NCBI GenBank assembly: GCA_951406725.2
Contig: OX597814.1
Coordinates: 47,802,001-47,866,000 of the forward strand
Direction: 5' to 3'
Source: Octopus vulgaris
Lineage: Eukaryota
DNA length: 64,000 nucleotides
Below the pieces are notes generated by a model. The model was not told the origin of the DNA. It saw only the letters and a list, made by a program, of their open reading frames with translations, and did no database searches. Positions within the stretch are counted from its first letter, which is position 1. Each line of letters opens with the position of its first letter. Below are positions 7,638 to 53,250 of the stretch, piece after piece. The translations under genes were made by a program, and so were the position numbers.

Positions 7638-7874
7638 AGAGTATAGACTAACCTAAAAAAATAATCAACTTTCTGAATATTATCGACACACTGTCTTATC
7701 CAGTAGCACACAATATTACCGTCTTAACAATATTATACTGTATATTATACAATTTTAACACAATACAAGTTTAGTGATGATAAATTTTAAATTTTAAGTA
7801 AATTTTAATAACTACTATACATTATTAAAGTCTGATATTTATACTGCATTTTTATTATTACCTTCTACAGTAAT

Positions 7875-8288
7875 GCTTTCTACTCTAGGCAAAAAGCCCG
7901 AATTTTTTTTTTTTTTTTTTTGGTGGTGGTGGCGGTGGTGAGGCAGTCGATTAGATCGATGCCAGTACGCAACTGGAACTTAATTTATCGACCCTGAAAG
8001 GATGAAAGGCAAAGTAGACCTCGGTGGAATTTGAACTCAGAACAGACGAAATACCCATTTCTTTACTACCCACATGGGGCTAAACACAGAGGGGACAAAC
8101 AAGGACAGGCAAACGGATTAAGTCGATTACATCGATCCTAGTGCATAACTGGTACTTAATTTATCGACCCCGAGAGGATGAAAGTCAAAGACGACCTCGG
8201 CGGAATTTGAAATCAAAACATAACGGCAGACGAAATACTGCCATGCATTTCGCCCGGTGTGCTAACGTCTTTGCCAGCTCGCCGCCTT
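7875..8288 (-). mobile_element. Composite family-B SINE (head/body, Tx1-type tail, second body, native tail) with 15-bp TSD
   Basis: Minus strand: GGCGGCGAGCTGGC head, body CTTTCATCCTCTCGGGGTCGATAAA, tail TGTCCCCTCTGTGTTTAGCCCCATGTGGGTAGTAAAGAAATG, then GGTATTTCGTC and a second body. TSD ACCTT(C/T)TACAGTAAT at 7860-7874 and 8290-8304. Confidence 0.88.
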
Positions 8289-9586
8289 AACCTTTTACAG
8301 TAATACCAGTTTCGTCTGGACGGTCGGGTCTAGTGAGAAATTTACTTATAGCACCTTCATTTCGACTTTCTTCTTCTTCTTCTTCTTCTTCTTCTTCTTC
8401 TCTTTTTTTTTTTTTTCGAAATGCTGCCCGCTGCCCTTAATTCGCTTCCTCTCTAATTATATCAGTGATATCGTAAATTTATATGAATAAAACGAAGTAG
8501 AATATAGACCAACCTAAAAATAATCAACTTTCTGAATATCATCGATACACTGTCTTATACAGTGACACATAATTTTACTGTATTAGCAATATTATAGTGT
8601 ATGTTACACAATATCAACACACAATAAAAGTTTACTGATGATAAATTAAAAGTTTAAGGAAATTTTAATAACTACTATAGATTATTAAAGTCTAAAATAT
8701 TTATTCTGCATTTTTATTAATGATATATTAATACAAATAAATTGTGCAGCCCGGAGCGGACCGCCCTCCCCGCCTCTTTGGCACGCCACTGATTTGAACT
8801 AGGAGGCAACCATCCAAAGGGCAATATTTCTCCCAGTATTAACAACCATTGCACTTTCCTTATACATTTTACATGGCATATAAATAAAATACTATGTGGA
8901 TACAGTAAGTGGGTGTATATGACTATGTGTTCAACTAATTTATTAGTGGAACACATGTTTAAACCTGATTTCAAGATGAAACACTGAAGCGTTAGTTCTC
9001 TTCATAAACTTTAGACATTTGAAACGCGAATCTGTAGACTTGTACATTACACTGGTCATAAATATAAAACTGATTATTCGTATATATAAGAGAAAACATT
9101 ACCGCTAAGTCTTCAACTGAATTACGCGACCAAAACGTGTAAAACAGTTTTTTATTTTATTTCTAACAGTTCGCTTATTATGCAGAGTGCAGGTAGATTT
9201 TCCATTCAGTTTTATGATTCTTTTGCTTTTTATTTCATTTTTCATAATACTGTGTGATGTTGTTTCGCATCTGTACTTAATCTTAATGTTACTTCTCGAA
9301 CACGTTCAAAAACTAGTGTTTTGTCTTTACTGGCCTTTTTCTACGTTTGTCTTCCAACTCAAATGCATTCAAATTTAAAGTAATATTATTAAATTAGATT
9401 CTATAATTTTTCTTTTTCTTTCACGGCACCACAGTTTTTCAACTTCTATCATCTCTCGTCCAATATATTTCCCTTCTCATTTTCTTCAGATATTGCAGGA
9501 TATACATGATTTTTTTCCTGTTAATTCTTTAAAGTGCTACATTTGTCAAGTCTTCGTTCATTTTATTCTTTCTGCCCACAACACCA

Positions 9587-10010
9587 ATATTGTTTTCAAA
9601 TTTTAGCACAAGATCAGCAATTTCGGGGAAGGAGTAAGTCGATTACATCGACCCCAGTGTTTCAGCTGATTCTTATTTTATCGACCCCGAAAGAATGAAA
9701 GGCAACGTCGACTTCGGCGGAATTTGAACTCAGAATGTGAAGACGGGCGAAATACCTATTTCTTTATTACTCACAAGGGGTTAAACATACCTATTTCTTT
9801 ATTACCCACAAGGGGTTAAACATAGAGGGGACATAGGTATTAAGTCGATTACATCGTCCCCAGTGTTTCAGCTGATTCTTATTTTATCGACCTCGAAAGG
9901 ATGAAAGGCAACGTCGGCTTCAGCGGAATTTGAACTCAGAATGTAAAGACGGACGAAATACCGCTAAAGATTTTGTCCGGTATGCTTATGATTCTGCCAG
10001 CTGGTTGCCT
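9587..10010 (-). mobile_element. Family-B SINE interrupted by an 84-bp Tx1-type 3' tail insert between 122-bp direct repeats
   Basis: Repeats 9635-9756 and 9841-9962 differ at 7 positions. Insert 9757-9840 holds two copies of TATTTCTTTATTAC(T/C)CACAAGGGGTTAAACATA. Confidence 0.9.
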
Positions 10011-10308
10011 CAAACAACAATAATATTGATTTCAAATTTTGGCTGAAGGCGGCGATTCTGCCAGTTCGCCGCCTTAAACACAATACCAATATCGAAAAGG
10101 AAGTATAACTTGCTGGAATTAAAATGCTGCCAGCTGGAATGCTGCTCTTAGCAACCAAAAGAGGTCATTCAGCCACCAGACTGACAACCTTATGAAAATA
10201 AAACTAGCAAAACTCTAAAATCGAGCATGAAAAAGGCATTCAGCAAAACCTACCCATTTTTATTTTTAATCTTTTATTTGTTTCCGTTAATGGACTACAA
10301 CCATATTA

Positions 10309-13300
10309 TATTTCTTTATTACCCATAAGGGTTTACATAGATGGGGACATTCAATGATTTGGGGTCATGTGGATGAAATGGAGCTATTTACAGGGACATC
10401 GAATGGATTATTTACAATGAAAATGAAAATGAAATTGAACAAGAACAAACAAACAAAAAGGGACATATGAAGTCAAAAGAACAGGATAGCCGACCCCACG
10501 AGCCCTGTTATTTTAACTGAAACTTTTTGGTAAGGGATCACGGCGTGTTCATGCAAGGCCTTTCACACCTAGCATCCGTGCAACACGCATCCATCTTTTT
10601 TTGAATACAGACTCTGACAGACACATTTTCTCTAGCCCCACCTTCCTTTTCAGATGGAACTTGAAAAAGTTCGTTAGGGCGGTGCCAGAGATCATGGTGT
10701 CTGACATTATACCTTTCACTCTAGTCTTCCATATAACCCCTTTCGCAACTGCTACTATCACGAGAAAGCAATGCTTACCTTCGTTCGTCATGAAACCAGG
10801 CGGGTCAATTTTTAAGATTTACTCAGACGACAGCTGTACTCTTCTTCCGTCCGACAACAGGTGTTCGGCATAAACCCACACGTCCGAAATATCCGGACTG
10901 AACAATAGCGTGCAGGACTGTTTCCACATCCCGCCCGCATCTTGGACAGACCGATGGTCCACTGTGACCATACCTTGTGAGTTTATCTCGAACGGGTAAG
11001 GCTCCTCTGTAACATTGCCAGGCCAAGGACTTCTGAAAATTATCCAGTGTCCCTGGTCCGAATGTCCTTTAGAACAGGCTGTCTAACTGATTACCATCGA
11101 GACCCAGGGTCCTTCCCAGGGTATCGTCATTTCCGGCCTCTACCAACCTGCTATAGAACGCTGCGGTGGTACCAAAGCCGCCGGCATTGCCCGTGCTGCG
11201 GAAGTGTAAGAGAGCCTTACGGCACTCCCAATACCACATACTCAATCTTAGTCTGCGACGAAACCAGGTTTCTCTACCACCAAAACTGGCAAAACTGGGG
11301 AACATCTGTTTTGCGAGTGGGGACCACACCCGTTCACCTTCTAGGTATTGCCAAAGATGCCTCAACATCAGCGCATGTCTGCGCATCAACAGCCAAGGCA
11401 TCCCTAACCCACCCTTTAACGGCTTTTGACAACAGATAGAACGTCTCATAAGAGGAGTGGAACCCTTCCACAAAAAGCGAAAGATTTGCCTCTCCATCTT
11501 GCTCAATCACGAATCCGGACAAGGGACGACGGTTAGGCGGTATATGATGACCGATGCCATGAACACATTGGCCACCTCCGCCCTCCCTTTCAAGGATAGC
11601 CACCGCCAAGACCAAGTCTTGACCACGTGAGCCACCTTGCTCGCGACCTCAGACCAGTTCTTTTCTATCTGGAGACCTGGACCAAACCAGATCCCTAGCA
11701 ATTTAACCGGGGCCTCCGTCCAGCATCCCACGATGCTATTCGAAGCGAAGGCATCGACTTGCCAACCCAGGTGCCGAGTTGCAAGCCGACTGACTTTTCC
11801 CGGTTGGTTTTTGCTCCTGACACCGTCTCGTACTCCTTGATGGTGTCTCCTACATTCTGTAGGATGATGGTGGTGTCGTCCGCATACGCTGTAACAGATC
11901 CTCCTCCTCCTGGATTTGTCGGGATGACGCTCAGCTTTCGCAGTAATGGCTCGAGAGCCATCACATATAAAAGCGGAGAGAGCGGACACCCTTGACGAAC
12001 TGACCGTTTGATGCGGAACGACCTAGAAAGTAGACCGTTCACCCGAACGATCGAGTCGATGTTGTACAACTGTATAATCCACCTGAGGAAACCAGTACCC
12101 AGCCCGAACTGTGCGAGTACAGACACCAAGTAACGATGGTTCACCCTATCGAAAGCTTTACTCTGGTCTAAATGGACCAGTGCCCCACCCTTGCCAGAGT
12201 TATTCCCAAACCCTTCTACGGTGTAACGTATAAGGTGAAGATTATCCTGAATAGTTCTTCTGGGGACTGCAAAAGTTTGTGCCTCCTCGATCAGACCATC
12301 TGCGACACGCGTCAACCTTTTCGCTAACACCTTGGCCAAAATCTTCACCTCCGCGTTCAGCAGGGTGATAGGCCTAAAGTTATCTATTCTGTTTCCCTTG
12401 TCGAGGTCCTTCCTGATCAGTGTCACCACTCCCCGGCGTACAGACCTGGGAATCCTCCCATTCTGATACCAGTTTGCGAAAACGCTGGCCAGTATTGGCC
12501 CGAACAAGTCTGGCATACTTTTATATAGTTCGTAGGGTAAACCATCGAGTCCCGGCGCCTTACCTCTGCCACAGTCGGCTATGGCCTCAGTCACCTCCTC
12601 AGGCGTGATTGACCCTTCACAGCTCTCCGCATCCCGCCCCGAGAGGCGCGGCAGCCCGGCGAGGAAGCCCGTAAGGTCCACCCTCTCATCCGGTCCACCT
12701 TCACCCCCGAAAAGCTGGGCGAAGTGCTCCTGAAAAAGTCCGACACATCTCCTCGGGTTCGTTTACCACATCGCCCTTTTCGTTCGTCACAGACTTAATT
12801 GTGGAATCGTTTCCGTGTTGAGCCTCCACAACTCGTGCCCATCCGGCGGCCTTAATTCCCTCGCACCCCATTGCGCGAACTCTAGCTCTGACGATACAAC
12901 CCATATGCTTGGTTTCGAGGTGCTGGTTTAATTCCTGTCTCTTCACCTTCACCTGGGTCCCGTCGCCAGATCTTATGGCTTCTTCTAAAGCCTTAACTAG
13001 CCCCTCTTCTTTCTTACGCCTTTTATTTGCTAGTCCCATACTATATCTAATGGACTCGTATTTTATGGCTCTCTTGAGCGCTAACCACCATTTGTTGTTA
13101 AGAATGGAACCGGTTAACGCCCTCTGAATTTGTAACCTAATCCGGCTTCTGTACTCCTCAATCGCCAAAAGGGACTTATTGAGTTTCCAGTAACCGGATC
13201 CTTTTCTACATAACTTATCTAGGTACAGCTTACCAGTGACCATCTTGTGGTCACTGTAACTGACCAAGTGAAACTGTGGACACTTAACTATGCCTTTATC

Positions 13301-14056
13301 TAGTTCTCTAATAAAAATCATGTCTATGTAAGATTTGGAAGACCCGTCGCTATTTGACCACGTCCACAGTGGAGCGTCCGGGAATTCCAGTCTGTAAGGA
13401 TCTACTAGCTGAAAGCGACTCAGTAGATCTCGTAAGCCACTGTTAGGTTTCCTATCATCTTTGGAGCCAACACTATCGACACGCGCATTGACAATAGTGT
13501 TAAAGTCCCCTAGCATCACTATGGATTTTGACGTCCCTAGAAATTTCTCCAGGTCCCGAAAGTAATCAGTCTGATGTGATTGGGGTGCGTACACCGCCAC
13601 CAGCCTGATCTCCTTACCACAACTGAAAGTCAGACCTAAGACGACCAGCCCTACCCTCTGGGTCAACAAAAATTAACTTTTTCTCTGAAACTCTATTCCT
13701 TTTAAGTAGGACCAACACCCCACTTCCGCCACCCACCTGCCGACATGGAGAAATAAATTTCTCGTAGCCATCCAGGAGCGGGAGTAGATCTCTTGGCCCT
13801 TTCAACCGAGTTTCAGTAGCTACAACAACATCTAAATCGTTTCAGTAGCTACAACAACATCTAAATCGAACTGTTTCCAGTTCGTCATCAGGCCACGCAC
13901 ATTTAAACACCCTACTTGAACAGCCATAAATCACTTACTTTGTTTCTTCTGAGTCCGGGGGGCGAGGGAGAACCGCCTCCTCTTCGTCTGGGGCCCGTGG
14001 AGTCGGCTGGATCAGGCCCTCGTACAGACGGTTCGAAACCTCCATCCGCAGAAGGC
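10309..14056 (-). mobile_element. Tx1/L1-clade non-LTR retrotransposon, 5'-truncated within ORF1, decayed
   Basis: APE, RT and CCHC domains in order; 3' UTR ends AATAAAGAAATA; TSD GGACTACAACCATATTA at 10292-10308 and 14071-14087. Confidence 0.95.
10549..13927 (-). pseudogene. LINE ORF2 (AP-endonuclease, reverse transcriptase, zinc finger), broken by frameshifts and stops
   Basis: Start MAVQVGCLNVRGL (ATG at 13927). APE motifs AVYAP, MLGDFN, SYID, SDH, WKLN (12701-13669). RT motifs KAPGLDG, FRPITLLN, DQSKAFD, QGCPLSP, YADD (11695-12681). GGLGMP. CPRC...ETVLHA (10823-11026). Confidence 0.95.
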
Positions 14057-14257
14057 CTACAACCATATTAGGACTACAACCATATTAGAGCATCACTTTG
14101 AGTAGGGTATACTCGAACAGATCGAGCTCAGTGTTTTTTCTTAAAGTCTTGTATATTTCTATAAGTAGGCGAACAGAATGAAAACACACTCTCTTTCTCA
14201 CACATACACAAACACACACACACACATGCACGCACATACACACACATATGTGCTAGC

Positions 14258-32980: not shown

Positions 32981-34182
32981 CTGGGTTGGCTAAAAAGTCT
33001 GTTCAGTTTCTGTCGACAATAAAAATTCCAGCGTTCTAATATGTAACTTCAGCCTGTCCCTCGTGCATGTACACTCGTTAGGTAGTTAGCGCTTCAACGT
33101 AGTTCCTCATGAACTTGCGACTAGAAAGATTGTATTTTGCGTGCTTGGGATCACCTTGAGAATGAAGAACCAAAACGAACATTATCAACAACTCATGTTT
33201 TTTTTAATTTTTTAAAAAGCCAGAAAACGGTGGAAACCTACAAGAATATATGCGCTGATATACGAAGGGGATGTTGTTTGTGAATCTGTATGCCAGAAGT
33301 AGGTTTCAAAATGTCGATCGGGAAACTTATCGGTTTAAGATGCGCCTCGCTCTGGCCGGTCAGCTGAGATTAACAGAGACAACAACACTCGTTATACATC
33401 CAGGATGATCGCAGATATTCTTCAGATATCTACATCGGGTGTTGATAACTATCTTCATCAGCTTGGTTACATAAGCTGTCTCGATGTTTGGGTCCCACAT
33501 CAATTGAATGAAGCTAACCTCGCCCAACAGTTTTCCATCTGCGAACCGTTACGGAAAAAAAAAGCAAACGATTCATTTTTTGAAGAGACTGATGATAACA
33601 GGGGACGAAAAATGGATCGTCGAAGCGCAAACGCTCATGTGGGAAGCGCGGCAAACCGATACAAACAACCTTTAAAGAAGGGCTTCAACCAGAAGAAGGT
33701 TATGCTTTCAATTTGGTAGGATTTGGTGCTGTTTTTTACGAGCTTCTTCACGCAGTCAGGACCATAAATTCATTTCTGTGCTGTGACCAGCGAAACATAG
33801 GAAGCACAGCACTCTACCAAATTAAGCACTGCGTCCACCACTTACTAATTGTAAGGACACTGCCATTCATCACGACAATGGTAGATTACACACTTCTTTG
33901 TAGACGCGCAGACGTTAGAGGAGTTTGGCTTGGGACTTTTGCCGCATCCTCCATATTCACCCGATATTGTGCCTTCAGATTTTCACCTGTCATTGTCTCT
34001 GAAGAACTAAAAATTCACCTGGAAGAGATTTTCGCCAGTAAAGACAAGAAATTCTTCGAGCACAGAATAATGGATCTGCCTATAAGATGGCAGAGGATAC
34101 TGAACTGAAATGGTTATATCAGTTACTGAATAAAACTTTTGCTTAACAAAAAAGAAGTGAACGTACTGTTTGACCAACCCAG
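32981..34182 (+). mobile_element. Near full-length decayed mariner transposon
   Basis: TIRs CTGGGTTGGCTAAAAAGT and TACTGTTTGACCAACCCAG-TA, about 1.2 kb apart; transposase motifs DAPRSGR, WVPHQL, KKVMLSIW, HPPYSPDIVPSDF, DLPIRWQ with stops and frameshifts. Confidence 0.92.
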
Positions 34183-41790: not shown

Positions 41791-41963
41791 CCCCGTATTC
41801 CGGTGGTAAATATGATGAGATAAATAAGGACATTAAGTGGTAAGTAAAAATTATTGAGAATTAACTTATTAGAAAAAAAAACTTAATGAATAATAAACGT
41901 TTTAAAAGGGGGAAGAAAGGAATTTTGTAGAAATATTTGAATCAATTGTAAAAACATAATCAT

Positions 41964-42860
41964 CCCAGAGTTAAGTTGCTAGCAGTCTGGTTTGGGCCAC
42001 ATCTCCAGGTAGAAAATACCTGGGCTGATGTATCGAGTAAGGTGACCCCCATAGTCAAGACCTGGTCTTGGCGGTAGCTATCCTTGAAAGGATGTGTTTA
42101 TCGCATCGGTCATCATTTACCGCCTAACCGTCGTTCCTTGCCCAGATTCGTGGTTGAGCAAGTTGGAGAGACAGATCTTTCGCCTCTTGTGGAAGGGCTC
42201 GACTCCACTTGTGAGGCGTTCTATTTACTGTAAAAAACCATTAAAGGGTGGACTAGGTGGACTTGGTTGTTGATGTGCAAACATGCGCTGAGATTGAGGC
42301 ACCTCTGGATCGTCCTGGATAGTTTTAGGGTGCGGACTTCGCTTGCGAAACGGATGTTTCCTAGGTTCACTAGTTTTGGTGGACGGGAAAACTGGTTCTG
42401 TCGAAGATCGAGGTTGGGTATCTGGTTTATAGAGTGCCGTAAGGCCCTCCCACTGTTCCGTCGCTCAGGCAATGCTAACAGTTTTGGTACAACCGCATCT
42501 CTTTATAGCAAGTTGGTAGAGTCTAGATGTGACGATACCTTAGGGGGGACCCTGGGCCTCGATACTGATCAGCTAGACAGTCTGTTCCAACGGACATTCG
42601 GGCAGAAGAAACTGGATAACTTCCAAAAGTCTCTGGCCTGGCAATATTACCGAGGAGCCTTACCCGTTCAGGATAAGCCCACAAGACACAGCCAACCCGG
42701 CCCATCGACCTGTCCAAGATGCGAGCAGGTGAGGGAAACCGTCCTGTACGCTATTGTTCAGTGTCCGGAAGTGTCAGAATTGTGGTCTTATGCAGAACAC
42801 CTGTTGTCGGATACAAGAAAATTACAGCTGTCGTCTGAGTCAATTCTAAAAATTAACCCA
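41964..42860 (+). mobile_element. Tx1-type ORF2 3' fragment, same family as 10309-14056
   Basis: HALRLRHLW...WFIECRKAL...DNFQKSLAWQYYRGALPV...CPRC..VRETVLYAIVQC is closely similar to 10800-11712. Confidence 0.93.
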
Positions 42861-42989
42861 TAATATTTCTCTTTCAAGTTCATGCTGATCCTACACGTCT
42901 AAGTTCGTATGAGAGGTCAACAGTTCGCTACCGACCCGCATGATGTTATTCATTCATTTTTTAATACTTGGCTGATGTATTTATTTATG

Positions 42990-43044
<55 letters not shown>

Positions 43045-43176
43045 AAAATAGTAAAGTGTGAAAAAACGACAGAAGGCTTAAATGTTAAAAAATATATATA
43101 TTTGTGTCAAAATGTCTGGAGAATATTGGAAAAATTTTTTTCCCTTCCTTAAAATGACATAATTTTAAAATTTTTA

Positions 43177-43216
43177 AAGAAATTACCGGTTTCGCGTGTA
43201 GCTTTTCAAATTTCTT
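43177..43216 (-). ncRNA. Minimal type-I hammerhead motif (mirror of 43943-43982)
   Basis: Exact reverse complement of 43943-43982. Confidence 0.8.
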
Positions 43217-43942
43217 GTGACGTTATGTTTATATTGCATGGAGTTATCGTTGTTTTTATTTCCAGGAGATTTCTAAATAAGGGGAGGTAGTGAGTGATTT
43301 CTTCCGGTGTAGGGGAGATAATCGCTTAAAAATTTTTTTTCCCTTTTCCTTGTTAATTTCTCTGTGTCAGTATGTTCGGATTGTTGAGTCTTTTTTCCCT
43401 TTTCCTTGTTAATTTCTCTGTGTCAGTATCTTCGGATGGTTGAGTCTGGGTTTGTACTTTTCAATGAAGAATGTTTCCTTGTTCAGTCTCATTTGTGTTG
43501 TTGATCCGAAAGCACATTGGTAAAATGGGAAGATTAAAAACAGATTGCATTCCCAGAATATAGAATGATACCTTTTAGTGAGCACATTGAGAAATGCGCA
43601 AAGCAACTACTGCCACAATTTTTAATCTTCCCATTTTACCAATGTGCTTTCGGATCAACAACACAAATGAGACTGAACAAGGAAACATTCTTCATTGAAA
43701 AGTACAAACCCAGACTCAACCATCCGAACATACTGACACAGAGAAATTAACAAGGAAAAGGGAAAAAAGACTCAACCATCCGAACATACTGACACAGAGA
43801 AATTAACAAGGAAAAGGGAAAAAAATTTTTTAAGCGATTATCTCCCCTACACCGGAAGAAATCACTCACTACCTCCCCTTATTTAGAAATCTCCTGGAAA
43901 TAAAAACAACGATAACTCCATGCAATATAAACATAACGTCAC

Positions 43943-43982
43943 AAGAAATTTGAAAAGCTACACGCGAAACCGGTAATTTCTT
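43943..43982 (+). ncRNA. Minimal type-I hammerhead ribozyme motif, U3-A8 variant
   Basis: AAGAAAT-TTGAAAA-GC-TACAC-GC-GAAA-CCGG-TA-ATTTCTT: 7-bp stem I, core, 2-bp stem II, GAAA, palindromic CCGG, UA cleavage site. Confidence 0.8.
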
Positions 43983-44156
43983 TAAAAATTTTAAAATTAT
44001 GTCATTTTAAGGAAGGGAAAAAAATTTTTCCAATATTCTCCAGACATTTTGACACAAATATATATATTTTTTAACATTTAAGCCTTCTGTCGTTTTTTCA
44101 CACTTTACTATTTTCTTATATATTCACCCACGTGCTTTACCAAACAAACTTTCTTA

Positions 44157-45472: not shown

Positions 45473-46162
45473 ATATCCACATACACGCGCACGCACACGC
45501 ACGCACACACACGTACGCACACAAGTTGTTTAGAACGTACATAAAGGTTTGAAACGACTCCCTCACTCTCCACTACATTCAGTAATGGACCGACTGCGGT
45601 ACTTGTAGATATAAATATATGTTTCTATTATAATTAATTATTAAAGGGTTATCAGCTTGATCAGCTAATAGTTCACCATTATAAAGGATGTCTAGTTTGT
45701 GACTCAAAAATTTAAGTTGTTCTCCCTATATTATTGTATTACAACAACTGGCTTCTTTTACTTTGAGCATTTTATATTTTGCAGCTACAGTCTGGGCGTG
45801 TGATGGATAATGACTCACCCATGCAGCGTACTTTGTCCTAAGTGTAATATAATATATATATATACATATATATATAATAGTTCCAATTTCGAAGGGGAAG
45901 CCTCTGCGAGTAGTTGTAGATGCTTTAAGGAGCAGTCAAATATCTTTCAAATCATATCCTGTTACTTTATATAAGAAAGTAAAAACAAAAACCAAAGCCA
46001 AAAACAAGATGCTTACGGCTGGAATTTCTTTGGCCATAAGTCTGCTCGATCGGGGCTGACATGGGACTAAACAGTATCTATACTAACAAGAAATGCCAGC
46101 AAAATCTTCCTCAAATCCCATCTTACCGTCTTATATAAGGACAGTACACAGCAAAATAATCT

Positions 46163-46373
46163 TTAGCACGCCAGACGAAATGCTTAGCAGTATTTCGTCT
46201 GCCGCTGCGTTCTGAGTTCAAATTCCGCCGAGGTCGACTTTGCATTTCACCCTTTTGGGAATCGATAAATTAAGTACCAGTTATGCACCGGGGTCGATGT
46301 AATCAACTTAATCCCTTTGTCTGTCTTTGTTTGTCCCCTCTGTGTGTAGCCCCTTGTGGGCAGTAAAGAAATA
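46163..46373 (+). mobile_element. Family-B SINE monomer ending in the Tx1-type tail
   Basis: Body followed by TCCCTTTGTCTGTCTTTGTTTGTCCCCTCTGTGTGTAGCCCCTTGTGGGCAGTAAAGAAATA; possible short TSD AAA(A/G)TAATCT. Confidence 0.9.
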
Positions 46374-46879
46374 AGAAAAGTAATCTATCATGTCCTTGAA
46401 ATAGACCAGGTCGGCATAGTTGGAATGTCGTTGATTAAAGGTCTGCTCGGTTTGGGTTGACACCATCTCCACCACCAACAGCAACAACTTCTTGAAACGT
46501 TTCGATTCCTCTCTTCATTTCATGCGATGTTACAACAGTTATAAGTATCAAAGCACTTTGTTTTTTAAAAAAATCGTATTGGCTTTTCGAAACCGCATCT
46601 TCTATACCCATGGCAGTTGTAAATAAAAGCATGTAATGTATAAAGTTAAATAACCTTTAGATAGAAAAAAAAAAAAAAGGAACGAGGAACACTTGCCAGG
46701 CCCGAACTCGTATCGGCTGTATCCGTGACAAACATACTTACCACAACATTAAAGCAACCTGCGACCTCCCTTTCACTTGATTAAAAGCTTTGCTCTTACG
46801 AGCGAGAAAGTAAGTCGATTTACATTGTGAAAATGCCGACGCTTCGAAAAGATGTGAAATAAGTCAATAGGAGGATGAA

Positions 46880-48601: not shown

Positions 48602-48992
48602 AATATTTACAGCGGCGAGCTGGCAGAATCGTTAGCACGCCGGACAAAATGCTTTGCGGCATTTCGTCCGTCTTAGTTCAAATTCTGCCAAGGTTGACTT
48701 TACCTTTCAACCTTTTGGGGTCGATAAAATAAGTACTAGTTGAACACTGGGGTCGATGTAGTCGACTTATTCCTTCCCCGAAATTACTAACCTTGTGCCA
48801 AAATTTGAAACTAATATTTACAGCGGCGGGCTGGCAGAATCATTAGCATACCGGATTAAATGCATAGCGGCACCTCGCACGCCTTTACGCTCTGATTTCA
48901 ATTCTGCGAAGTCGACTTTGCCGTTCATAGTTTCTGGGCCGATGAAATAAGTACCGAAATTGCTGGCTTTGTGTCAAAATTTGAAATCAATA
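48602..48992 (+). mobile_element. Head-to-tail pair of family-B SINEs with native tail
   Basis: Both units start AATATTTACAGCGGCG.GCTGGCAGAATC and end TTGTG.CAAAATTTGAAA. Confidence 0.88.
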
Positions 48993-49360
48993 TCTAAAGT
49001 CCCAGTTATGACATTAACAACATTAATTATTCCAAGTGTGATTCAGTAAGTAACAATTTAGTACTTGTCATTATAATATAATTTTCTGTATTCCTCGTCA
49101 ATCCCCGCCCCCGTCCCCACACAATCACGAGATGTATTGCAAATAAATTTAAAATCAATGTTTAAATCAGTAAAGTTCCACTGTTTTTTTCTGTATATAA
49201 AAGAAATTAGCATTGCTATCATGCTTCTACAAAATCTGTATGCATCAAAATAGTTTCTCATTGTAAATAAATTTCACATGCTTACATACATACATACATG
49301 TATACGTGCATATATATTTAAGTATGTATATATAGAGAGAGAGACATATATAATCGTAGT

Positions 49361-49879: not shown

Positions 49880-50386
49880 TGAGTTGAGCGGTGACGAGCA
49901 AGCAAACCAGAGGCTCGTTGATTTTTGTTGTTGTCACTTAAATGCTCCATACTTCTGAACTTTACCCATCGAGTGAACATGCTTCTCTAAGGAAGTGTGG
50001 GAGCATTCCATTTTATCTGCCAGTTCCCTTGTCATTTGACGAGAATTTTCGTGCAAAAGTTGGTTTAATCGCTCTTCATCGAACTCAACTGGACGGCCAG
50101 AACGAGATGCGTCTTTGAGGTCAAAATATCCATTTTTGAACTTAGCATACCAATCACGAGCTGTTCTTTCAGCTATGGCACCCTCTCCATACACAGCACA
50201 AATGTCGTGAGCAGCTTTTGCGGCCTTAGAACCTTGATTAAAAGTAAAAAGAAGAAGGTGTCGAAAATGCTCGTTTTCCTTAACGTGACATTCCATTTTA
50301 ATGATCTGAATATAAACAAAAATTAACTAGAAAAAAAAAAAATTCCAAAATTTAAAAAAACCGCGGGAACTTAGTTGCCAACCCAA
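49880..50386 (-). mobile_element. Mariner 5' fragment (TIR plus HTH DNA-binding domain)
   Basis: TIR TTGGGTTGGCAACTAAGTT next to TA; ORF 49934-50296 MECHVKENEHFRHLLLF...ICAVYGEGAIAERTARDWYAKFK...SRSGRP. Confidence 0.92.
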
Positions 50387-52449: not shown

Positions 52450-52980
52450 GCGAAACGAAGAAACAGCGGGCCTCTGTGAAATTCTGTTTTCTGCTAGGGA
52501 AAACGACGGCTGAAGCAGTTCTCATGCTTCAAACAGCTTACAAGGGCGCTGCCATGAGCAAAGCACAAGTTTAAGAGTGGTTTTCCTACTCTAAGAATGG
52601 AGACTTCTTGCTTGAAGACCAATCTCGTTCAGGGCGACCGTTGATATCTCGAGCGATTAGAAACATCATGAAAACTCATGAACTGATCTTGGAGGGCCGC
52701 TCCGAATGATTGACGAACTTGTTGATATGACTGGTGTGTTCTGGAGCTCCTGCCAATGAATTTTGAGCGAAGAATTGCAAATAAAAAGAGCTACAACAAA
52801 ATTTGTATCGCGTTTGCTCACGGAAGATCAAAAGCAGTTACGACTGAGTGTGCGTCTTGAACTGAAAGAACAGTTCAAAGTTGATCCGAACCTTTCTTCG
52901 AAGATCATCACTGTTGACGAAAGCTGGTGCTACGGCTACAACCCGAAAACAAAGCAGCAATCAAGTCAATGGAAGCATTC
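52450..52980 (+). mobile_element. Mariner transposase remnant (N-terminal half)
   Basis: QRASVKFCFLLGKT...TAYKGAAMSKAQV*EWF...RSGRP...KIITVDESWCYGYNPKTKQQSSQWKH. Confidence 0.9.
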
Positions 52981-52987
52981 AGGTGAC

Positions 52988-53250
52988 CAGGGCCCGAAAT
53001 TGTTCAACATCCTTCCAGGCAACCTTAGAGATCTACATGGTGTTATTGTGGAAGTTTTCAAGGAACGTCTGGATAGGTTTCTATCTGAGATACCAGATGA
53101 ACCCACTTCGCGGGTGGAGACGCAAAGAAGAGCAGCTCCATCCAACTCGCTACTTCACCAAAAACAATATCGGAAACAACACCGAGTAACTACAGGTGGG
53201 GCACCAGCATGACCTCAGCCCTGAGCTGAAACCAGTAAAAGATAAAAGAT
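52988..53250 (+). mobile_element. CR1-clade LINE 3' end with intact tail
   Basis: QGPKLFNILPGNLRDL...FKERLDRFLSEIPDEP...NSL...GGAPA*, then the hairpin TCAGC-CCTGA-GCTGA and (TAAAAGA)n. Confidence 0.88.

Follow-up and report, generated by a model that had tools for sequence, protein, structure and literature searches.

The nearest published system to the one described here is crocodilian SINEU together with Tx1-Mar. In the portion of that account drawn on here (Kojima 2015, PMC4494074), SINEU was likely moved by Tx1 machinery and prefers a site inside another repeat. The resemblance to the octopus SINE analyzed below lies in the likely use of Tx1 machinery, in a target internal to a repeat, and in tandem insertions arranged around a short duplication. 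SINEU differs, within the same portion of text, in its snRNA heads, its poly(A) tail, its Mariner target, and the lack of homology to a LINE 3’ end. The octopus SINE, in contrast, has a LINE-homologous tail without poly(A) and targets itself, at two positions.

Two further groups of systems offer partial parallels. In stringent SINE-LINE pairs, the SINE takes its 3’ end from the partner LINE, and a conserved, structured 3’ end is described for an L1 lineage of plants together with its SINEs (PMC3747384, in the sections consulted). The octopus SINE departs from these pairs in carrying three different tails on one body, and in self-insertion accompanied by tail conversion. As for priming, read-through RNA of R2Ol is described as annealing to the target (PMC6795142), and L1 as priming with 4 nt (PMC3649969). 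In both, as far as the cited passages go, reverse transcription starts where a short run of RNA, located at the 3’ end or just behind it, has base-paired with the nicked target, much as we propose here. Those results are experimental and concern autonomous elements, whereas for the octopus SINE we infer the pairing, and it would be the following SINE unit that supplies the word.

Dimeric SINEs are described as being retroposed as units (PMC3531059), and SINE-derived satellites as short tandem arrays of SINE parts (PMC10702118), in the parts of those papers used here. The octopus arrays differ from such satellites in being dispersed, joined at fixed junctions (positions 48 and 15), and flanked by target-site duplications (TSDs). 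Ohshima and Okada reportedly described the octopus tRNA-type SINEs OK, OR1 and OR2 in 1994. OR2 is classed as a CORE SINE in the relevant passages of two later papers (PMC4758252, PMC5804259). Given its abundance, the family described here may well be one of these three, or may already be present in repeat libraries. An octopus repeat annotation lists 13 L1-Tx1 families as active and 893 SINE families as unclassified and, in the parts consulted, does not describe tails. Repeat libraries and the 1994 octopus SINE paper aside, the literature that we searched holds no published account of this family’s tails, arrays or targeting.

The copy at 46163-46373

The window is a 64,000-nt stretch of Octopus vulgaris DNA on contig C1 of a 2.8-Gb genome. 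The flagged copy occupies 46163-46373 on its forward strand and consists of a SINE body (46163-46308), which covers consensus positions 22-166 and carries T-subfamily alleles, followed by a 65-nt Tx1-type tail without poly(A) (46309-46373). Here and below, positions refer to a 231-nt unit consensus in which head and body span 1-166 and the tail spans 167-231. The body lacks the A box, and includes a long hairpin (46172-46201) and a B-box-like motif (46214-46226); the tail contains a 4-bp terminal hairpin at 46349-46361. A 13-bp TSD encloses the copy, all on the forward strand. The 3’ end of its 5’ member (46150-46162) overlaps SINE positions 17-21, which amounts to microhomology at the point of truncation, and the 3’ member (46374-46386) starts with AGAAA. 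The 3’ member differs from the 5’ member by two mismatches, both of which match the read-through word of SINE position 15, in a comparison made by eye at this one locus.

A sequence-only reading of the window had described this copy as a body joined to a Tx1-type tail, without a second body and in a different flank. That description stands: the tail agrees with the one at 8056-8120 in 58 of 65 positions, the flank is unique, and a second body is absent. The same reading had proposed that the copy was possibly the product of an insertion with a long TSD, which would have rebuilt an intact Pol III head and body upstream of the tail. This second proposal fails at the locus, where a T-type body without a head and without a second body is enclosed by a 13-bp duplication. 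Because the copy starts at consensus position 22, the first 21 nt, including the A box, are gone and no intact Pol III head is present. Nothing about the flagged copy is out of the ordinary for its family, which is huge and young.

Copies with native tails had been singled out for comparison. Native tail A is indeed carried by the copies at 48612-48812 and 48823-48990, which lie within a pair of head-to-tail class-A monomers (48602-48998, forward strand), and it is also present at 9594-9634. The stretch 9587-9634, however, does not represent a free native copy: it forms the downstream half of a composite, and the half upstream of it has a Tx1-type tail.

Family size, age and alternative tails

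Searched genome-wide, a 24-nt pattern taken from the end of the tail gave 101,678 exact matches and its reversed control none, and the best full-length matches to the 231-nt unit are spread over many contigs. Class frequencies come from a body-profile search of 80 evenly spaced 10-kb stretches (800 kb). The loci of our other searches (L-numbered) are enriched for young T copies, that is, copies with the Tx1-type tail, and the 800-kb sample alone is unbiased. It contained 187 bodies, of which 85 were T-tailed, 34 had native tail B and 32 had native tail A, the remainder being truncated at the 3’ end (20) or unclassified (16); none of 935 shuffled flanks was given any tail class. The native tails are of two kinds, A and B, and one body is therefore found with three alternative tails. 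Sorting the copies by tail was a check suggested from the outset, and T proved to be the commonest class. Scaled to 2.8 Gb, 85 copies per 800 kb correspond to an estimated ~300,000 T units.

Two expectations of the sequence-only reading were confirmed. Of the three tail classes, T is the youngest, with a median non-CpG divergence from its class consensus of 0.046 (n=83), against 0.092 for B (n=32) and 0.167 for A (n=30; p<1e-10), and on these values we reject the Tx1-tailed form as ancestral. The tail-switch point is also fixed, with the tail starting at the same offset (0) in 216 of 228 units. A fixed offset is what a single origin of the tail would lead us to expect. The exact switch point is uncertain by ~7 nt, since the match between LINE-type ends and the tail begins at the tail’s 8th base. 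The body most similar to that of T is the B body found in dimers, the consensus lines of the two differing at five sites over positions 48-166.

The head contains A- and B-box-like motifs, identified by eye against the box consensus; ARAGORN found no tRNA and Rfam returned no tRNA match. The central region may resemble the Nin domain of Nin/Deu-domain SINEs. Positions ~31-60 (window 46172-46201, with the equivalent present in all classes) form a hairpin of 12-13 bp, with z scores of -2.9 and -2.3 in two of the three copies folded. The insertion site at position 48 coincides with the loop-stem boundary of this hairpin. One RNA run, when mapped, had the same depth in either direction, and neither this run nor one mapped contig set revealed a start or end shared among copies.

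The tail and its Tx1-type relatives

On its reverse strand, the window contains a Tx1-like LINE (10295-14087) that is 5’-truncated and frameshifted, and that retains endonuclease and RT domains. The element at 10309-14056 is bounded by a short duplication of ~14 bp (10295-10308 and 14057-14070) at a site that is not within this SINE. Its domains match PF14529/PF03372 (AP endonuclease) and PF00078 (RT), to which relatives add zf-RVT. One match is to the ‘Transposon TX1 uncharacterized 149 kDa protein’ (41%, 1e-72), the best named relative of the RT is from Argonauta, and the ESM Atlas returned a generic RT label only. A second Tx1-like fragment, at 41960-42863, is 3’-truncated, has a zf-RVT match, and is ~75% identical to the first.

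The SINE tail matches the last 50 nt of the window LINE at 38 positions. Closer LINE-type ends are those of L359 (41/48) and L343 (51/59, counted from the tail’s 8th base), near neither of which was an ORF2 found. The tail motif lies downstream of ORF2 in L032-L055, L175, L190, L193 and L195. The suggestion that the SINE tail is common to the 3’ ends of Tx1-type LINEs is upheld by these matches. Of 39 distinct LINE-type ends, 29 have a short terminal hairpin in which changes compensate one another, against 23% of shuffles, and most T tails have it too. Folding of single tail sequences did no better than shuffles (z -0.6 to 0.4), and the evidence for the hairpin is thus comparative. Our searches of this genome did not find an autonomous partner, in the sense of a LINE that combines an intact ORF2 with exactly the tail of the SINE. 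The LINE-type upstream motif followed by a SINE-type tail has four matches genome-wide, and the two tested had no ORF2 within 1.5 kb. No LINE donor for native tail A or B was present among the fetched loci.

Insertions of Tx1-type elements into the SINE were sought by several routes. None of the 30 closest 3’ ends of window LINE relatives was followed by this SINE. At L365:7217-9439 (oriented; C1:105.51 Mb), an element of 2.2 kb, which has an ORF of 303 aa and whose 3’ end is Tx1-like, has entered the SINE at position 15 with a duplication of 0-1 bp, and none of the 13 of its 40 relatives whose flanks were inspected, over 35 nt each, lay inside this SINE. Tx1-type insertions found by pattern are at SINE position 15 in five of six matches. 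In addition, a Tx1-like ORF2 fragment at L370 (C5:136.98 Mb) has its 3’ end at SINE position ~34, a third site; its 5’ junction was not found.

Two sets of candidate insertions were rejected. L173, L174 and L223, in each of which a LINE-like end precedes a SINE body, had suggested a Tx1 family specific to position 48; they are duplicates of one locus, and other relatives have unrelated flanks. Twelve matches near position 35, on C7 and C31, all stem from one duplicated region (nine inspected). A block of several kb recurs there with its SINE arrangement unchanged, 11 times on the small contig C31 (L372-L379) and once on C7 (L371), and what appeared as an 81-bp duplication at these loci is two different SINE copies.

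Tx1-like elements elsewhere in the genome have settings of their own. Relatives of the window LINE at L033, L035 (C10), L052, L056 and L057 (C29) end just 5’ of histone H3/H2B coding starts, recognized by eye from the translation; several are clustered, and a histone-gene target is possible. A Tx1-like family with ORF2 upstream has its 3’ end directly in (TCTA)n microsatellites (L193, L195). Head-to-tail arrays with a period of ~1780 bp and a Tx1-type tail occur at L178-L185 (C1:64.24-64.26 Mb) and L198-L200; a search for ORF2 within 1.5 kb of them gave no match.

Target duplications, arrays and dimers

T copies generally have short TSDs. Among copies ending in non-SINE DNA, a TSD was detected in 79 of 167, with a median of 16 bp and a 5-95% range of 12-21, at a score for which the chance rate is 1.7%. 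The per-locus test of TSD asymmetry described below excluded six duplicated loci (L174, L201, L202, L221-L223), copies whose tail did not end cleanly, and flanks made up of simple repeats. Full-length copies nested in other units at position 48, the GGTAT site, have duplications of 15-16 bp (L211, L269, L340). A host head lies upstream of a full-length T copy in 5 of 99 chains, these three loci among them.

The T tail is followed by another SINE unit in 40 of 78 cases in the unbiased sample and in 147 of 317 overall. The downstream unit joins at position 48 in 107 of the 147, and at position 15 in 26. The left edge of the apparent duplication varies, at position 48 or 15, whereas the tail junction does not, which does not support the idea that the tail-switch point is tied to the edge of a long TSD. 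In composites that run from a T unit to a native one, the alleles at position 141 differ in 24 of 29, T in the first body and native in the second; four have T alleles in both bodies and one has native alleles in both. The two bodies of these composites differ by a median of 14%. Since the bodies belong to different subfamilies in 24 of the 29, those composites are not duplications.

The window contains one such T-B dimer (7875-8286, reverse strand). Its first half (8056-8286) is a Tx1-tailed full-length unit with head, T-type body and tail; its second (7875-8055) is a body from position 48, with B-type alleles and native tail B, that differs from the first body at 16 of 111 sites. The dimer is flanked as a whole by a 15-bp duplication (8290-8304 and 7860-7874), and short duplications flank many whole T-B dimers elsewhere. 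B bodies in dimers are younger than solitary B (0.061, n=26, versus 0.120, n=44; p=2e-6). We infer that T-B dimers are retroposed as units, although T copies that inserted in register into young B copies would leave a similar picture. At L110, L255, L264 and L340, native tail B runs into position 15 of the next unit, its last bases overlapping AGAAT. Going by such joints, microhomology between element end and target may be a property of all tail classes.

Target words and priming

In T copies with unique flanks, the TSD starts with GGTAT in 33 of 167, a 275-fold excess over background, and with AGA in 17. Across the unique flanks, positions 1 and 2 are coupled as words (p=4e-13). TATAT, GATAT and TGTAT flanks together make up another 36 of the 167, which suggests a looser enzyme preference as well. 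GGTAT is the word at SINE position 48 and AGAA the word at position 15, and both trail the tail in arrays. At L303, a T copy lies at a GGTAT made by mutation near host position 155, indicating that the word matters and not the position.

Moreover, the word tracks the tail variant. In unique flanks, CA tails are followed by AGA in 12 cases and by GG in 6, and TG/TA tails by AGA in 2 and by GG in 68 (p=7e-9). The arrays follow suit: CA tails join position 15 in 13 of 16, and TG tails join position 48 in 79 of 93.

Two explanations of this pattern deserve consideration. The first, which we favor, is that short read-through RNA beyond the tail takes part in priming at the target. The second is that the endonucleases of at least two partner Tx1 families, one cutting at GGTAT and one at AGAA, alone set the words, with arrays forming as these words occur in the SINE itself, in the manner of SINEU and Tx1-Mar; we regard it as unlikely, while taking it seriously. 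Several observations speak for the enzymes. Tx1-type elements are themselves found at SINE position 15, in the five of six pattern matches given above, and near position 34, and other Tx1-like families have recurring flanks of their own (histone 5’ UTRs and TCTA repeats). AGAA flanks occur in 5 of 13 relatives of the Tx1-derived family of L365, some members of which have a CA tail, and enzyme specificity could therefore explain the AGAA class. RNA templating would leave a per-locus asymmetry in the TSDs, and the one seen falls short of significance: 15 loci have the 3’ copy nearer to the read-through word, 8 have the 5’ copy nearer, and 3 are ties (p=0.21). This test replaces a per-position count (23 versus 7), which had included duplicated loci and non-independent sites.

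The main SINE target, GGTAT, is harder to attribute to enzymes alone. None of 56 LINE-type ends was followed by GGTA, and a genome-wide pattern, which limits the comparison to ends of that form, turned up no end of LINE type abutting position 48, where the single match reads as a T tail variant. These absences favor priming by read-through RNA. Enzyme-set words would, furthermore, require different partners for tail variants only 2 nt apart, and at L074, L212, L284 and L304 more than one base of the 3’ TSD copy is changed toward the read-through word.

The long duplication at 9578-10011

The composite at 9578-10011 (reverse strand) contains an in-register duplication of the kind that the model of the sequence-only reading predicts. 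A class-A host head and body come first (9841-10011), of which 9841-9962 is the upstream copy of a 122-bp duplication. They are followed by the inserted Tx1-type tail, internally shortened and then continued by a partial second tail copy (9757-9840). The last segment (9578-9756) holds the downstream duplication copy (9635-9756), native tail A (9594-9634), and the host’s own short TSD. The bodies on either side of the tail, within 9635-9962, are identical at 115 of 122 positions and have private mutations and class-A alleles in common. An internally deleted class-A SINE, with its head nearly joined to its tail end, adjoins the composite upstream (10024-10073).

The duplication is thus real, and its role is likely not the one that the model assigns to such events. 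The inserted tail opens at 9840 with the junction sequence of the SINE ‘TA’ subfamily, which is absent from every LINE end examined. It follows that a Tx1-tailed SINE predates the insertion and that the incoming RNA was likely T-SINE. The event turned an old copy to an existing tail and was not the tail’s origin, the 122-bp duplication being likely a by-product. T-SINE cDNA can pair with the host strand for as far as the homology extends; on this view the tail switch would determine where the duplication stops, and not the reverse.

Traces of similar events are rare elsewhere. At least two rare alleles are shared in 5 of 50 T-to-native pairs, compared with 22 of 5000 random pairs. By eye, the shared tracts end at different points (~112, 135, 146 and 168), and native alleles extend through positions 141-144 in 2 of 50. 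Long duplications that are rare and variable in length fit a need for homology between cDNA and host, which LINE RNA lacks. The native allele at position 141 is found in 8 of 365 T units, from which it appears that conversions have seeded no visible subfamily.

These observations bear on the earlier model, in which a Tx1 LINE tail entered a native SINE at GGTAT with a ~120-bp TSD, in a single event that founded the Tx1-tailed family. A real 122-bp duplication with the tail between its copies is what this model describes, T is the youngest class, the junction is fixed, and position 48 is the main downstream junction. The T-B dimer even has the layout of the postulated founder, and the T body is nearest to that of dimer B. 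The model is nevertheless improbable. Its best case opens with a SINE-specific junction; Tx1-type insertions here have TSDs of 0-1 bp (L365) or ~14 bp, and we observed no Tx1 LINE that had entered this SINE with a long duplication. The scarcity and variability of long duplications and the lack of a subfamily founded by conversion weigh against it as well.

That the arrays and shared alleles arose mainly at the DNA level, through unequal crossing-over, gene conversion and slippage on a few founder arrays, we consider highly improbable, for although some T-T neighbors are nearly identical (1-4%), 9 of 104 share at least two rare alleles, and SINE-derived tandem repeats are known (in the part of PMC10702118 cited above), such events leave unexplained the GGTAT and AGAA words with TSDs at unique flanks, the full-length nested copies with 15-16 bp TSDs at position 48, and the class-A head on the T-tailed unit 9841-10011. 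Shared alleles between neighbors could still come from later gene conversion, which may add to the sharing and cannot supply that head.

A proposed model for targeting and tail conversion

Taken together, our preferred reading is that 46163-46373 is a 5’-truncated copy, with a 13-bp TSD, of a young SINE family of more than 100,000 copies whose tail matches Tx1-type LINE ends, whose copying is likely the work of Tx1 enzymes, and whose priming probably involves a short piece of read-through RNA immediately behind the tail. We hold this reading, taken as a whole, to be probable. Its observed foundations are the abundance and youth of the family, the fixed junction, the short TSDs, the homology and hairpin of the tail, the arrays at positions 48 and 15, and the tracking of words by tail variants.

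A sequence of events that would produce this pattern can be proposed. A B-like SINE may have gained the tail once, likeliest through template switching or recombination with Tx1 RNA. If the source loci were arrays, Pol III transcripts would run past the tail into the next unit, beginning with GGTAT at position 48 or AGAA at position 15. This read-through could then pair with the nicked target, so that insertions would land at GGTAT or AGAA, other SINE copies included. Where the target is a SINE, cDNA homologous to the host may join in register; the host head would be kept, 15 to ~120 bp would be duplicated, and the old copy would receive a Tx1 tail, as presumably happened at 9578-10011. Retroposition of whole array transcripts would, finally, yield T-T and T-B dimers such as 7875-8286.

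It is tempting to extend this model and to speculate that the SINE programs its own target. Array read-through RNA would steer Tx1 priming to words inside the SINE, and homology between cDNA and host would duplicate up to ~120 bp. Older relatives would in this way become promoter-intact, Tx1-tailed copies equipped with a priming word, in a self-reinforcing drive of tail conversion. We advance this extension tentatively, with somewhat more doubt than belief. If true, it could explain the family’s take-over of the genome and perhaps the beginnings of Tx1 target specificity.

Whichever way the words are set, the family offers a natural experiment on whether the enzyme or the RNA’s 3’ read-through determines the target of a non-LTR element, with two tail variants, 2 nt apart, going to different words. 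The window catches an old copy that was given a new tail in register, which bears on how SINEs swap LINE partners. Should RNA steering hold, a 5-nt change would retarget Tx1-driven insertion, which would be useful for understanding and engineering site-specific retrotransposition.

Other features of the window

A repeat search of the whole window was dominated by microsatellites. ORF fragments at 33339-34108, 49934-50326 and 52760-53212 seem to resemble mariner transposases. A 505-bp inverted repeat at 43036-44123, with arms 99% complementary and a spacer of 78 nt, is likely a young foldback or MITE-like element.
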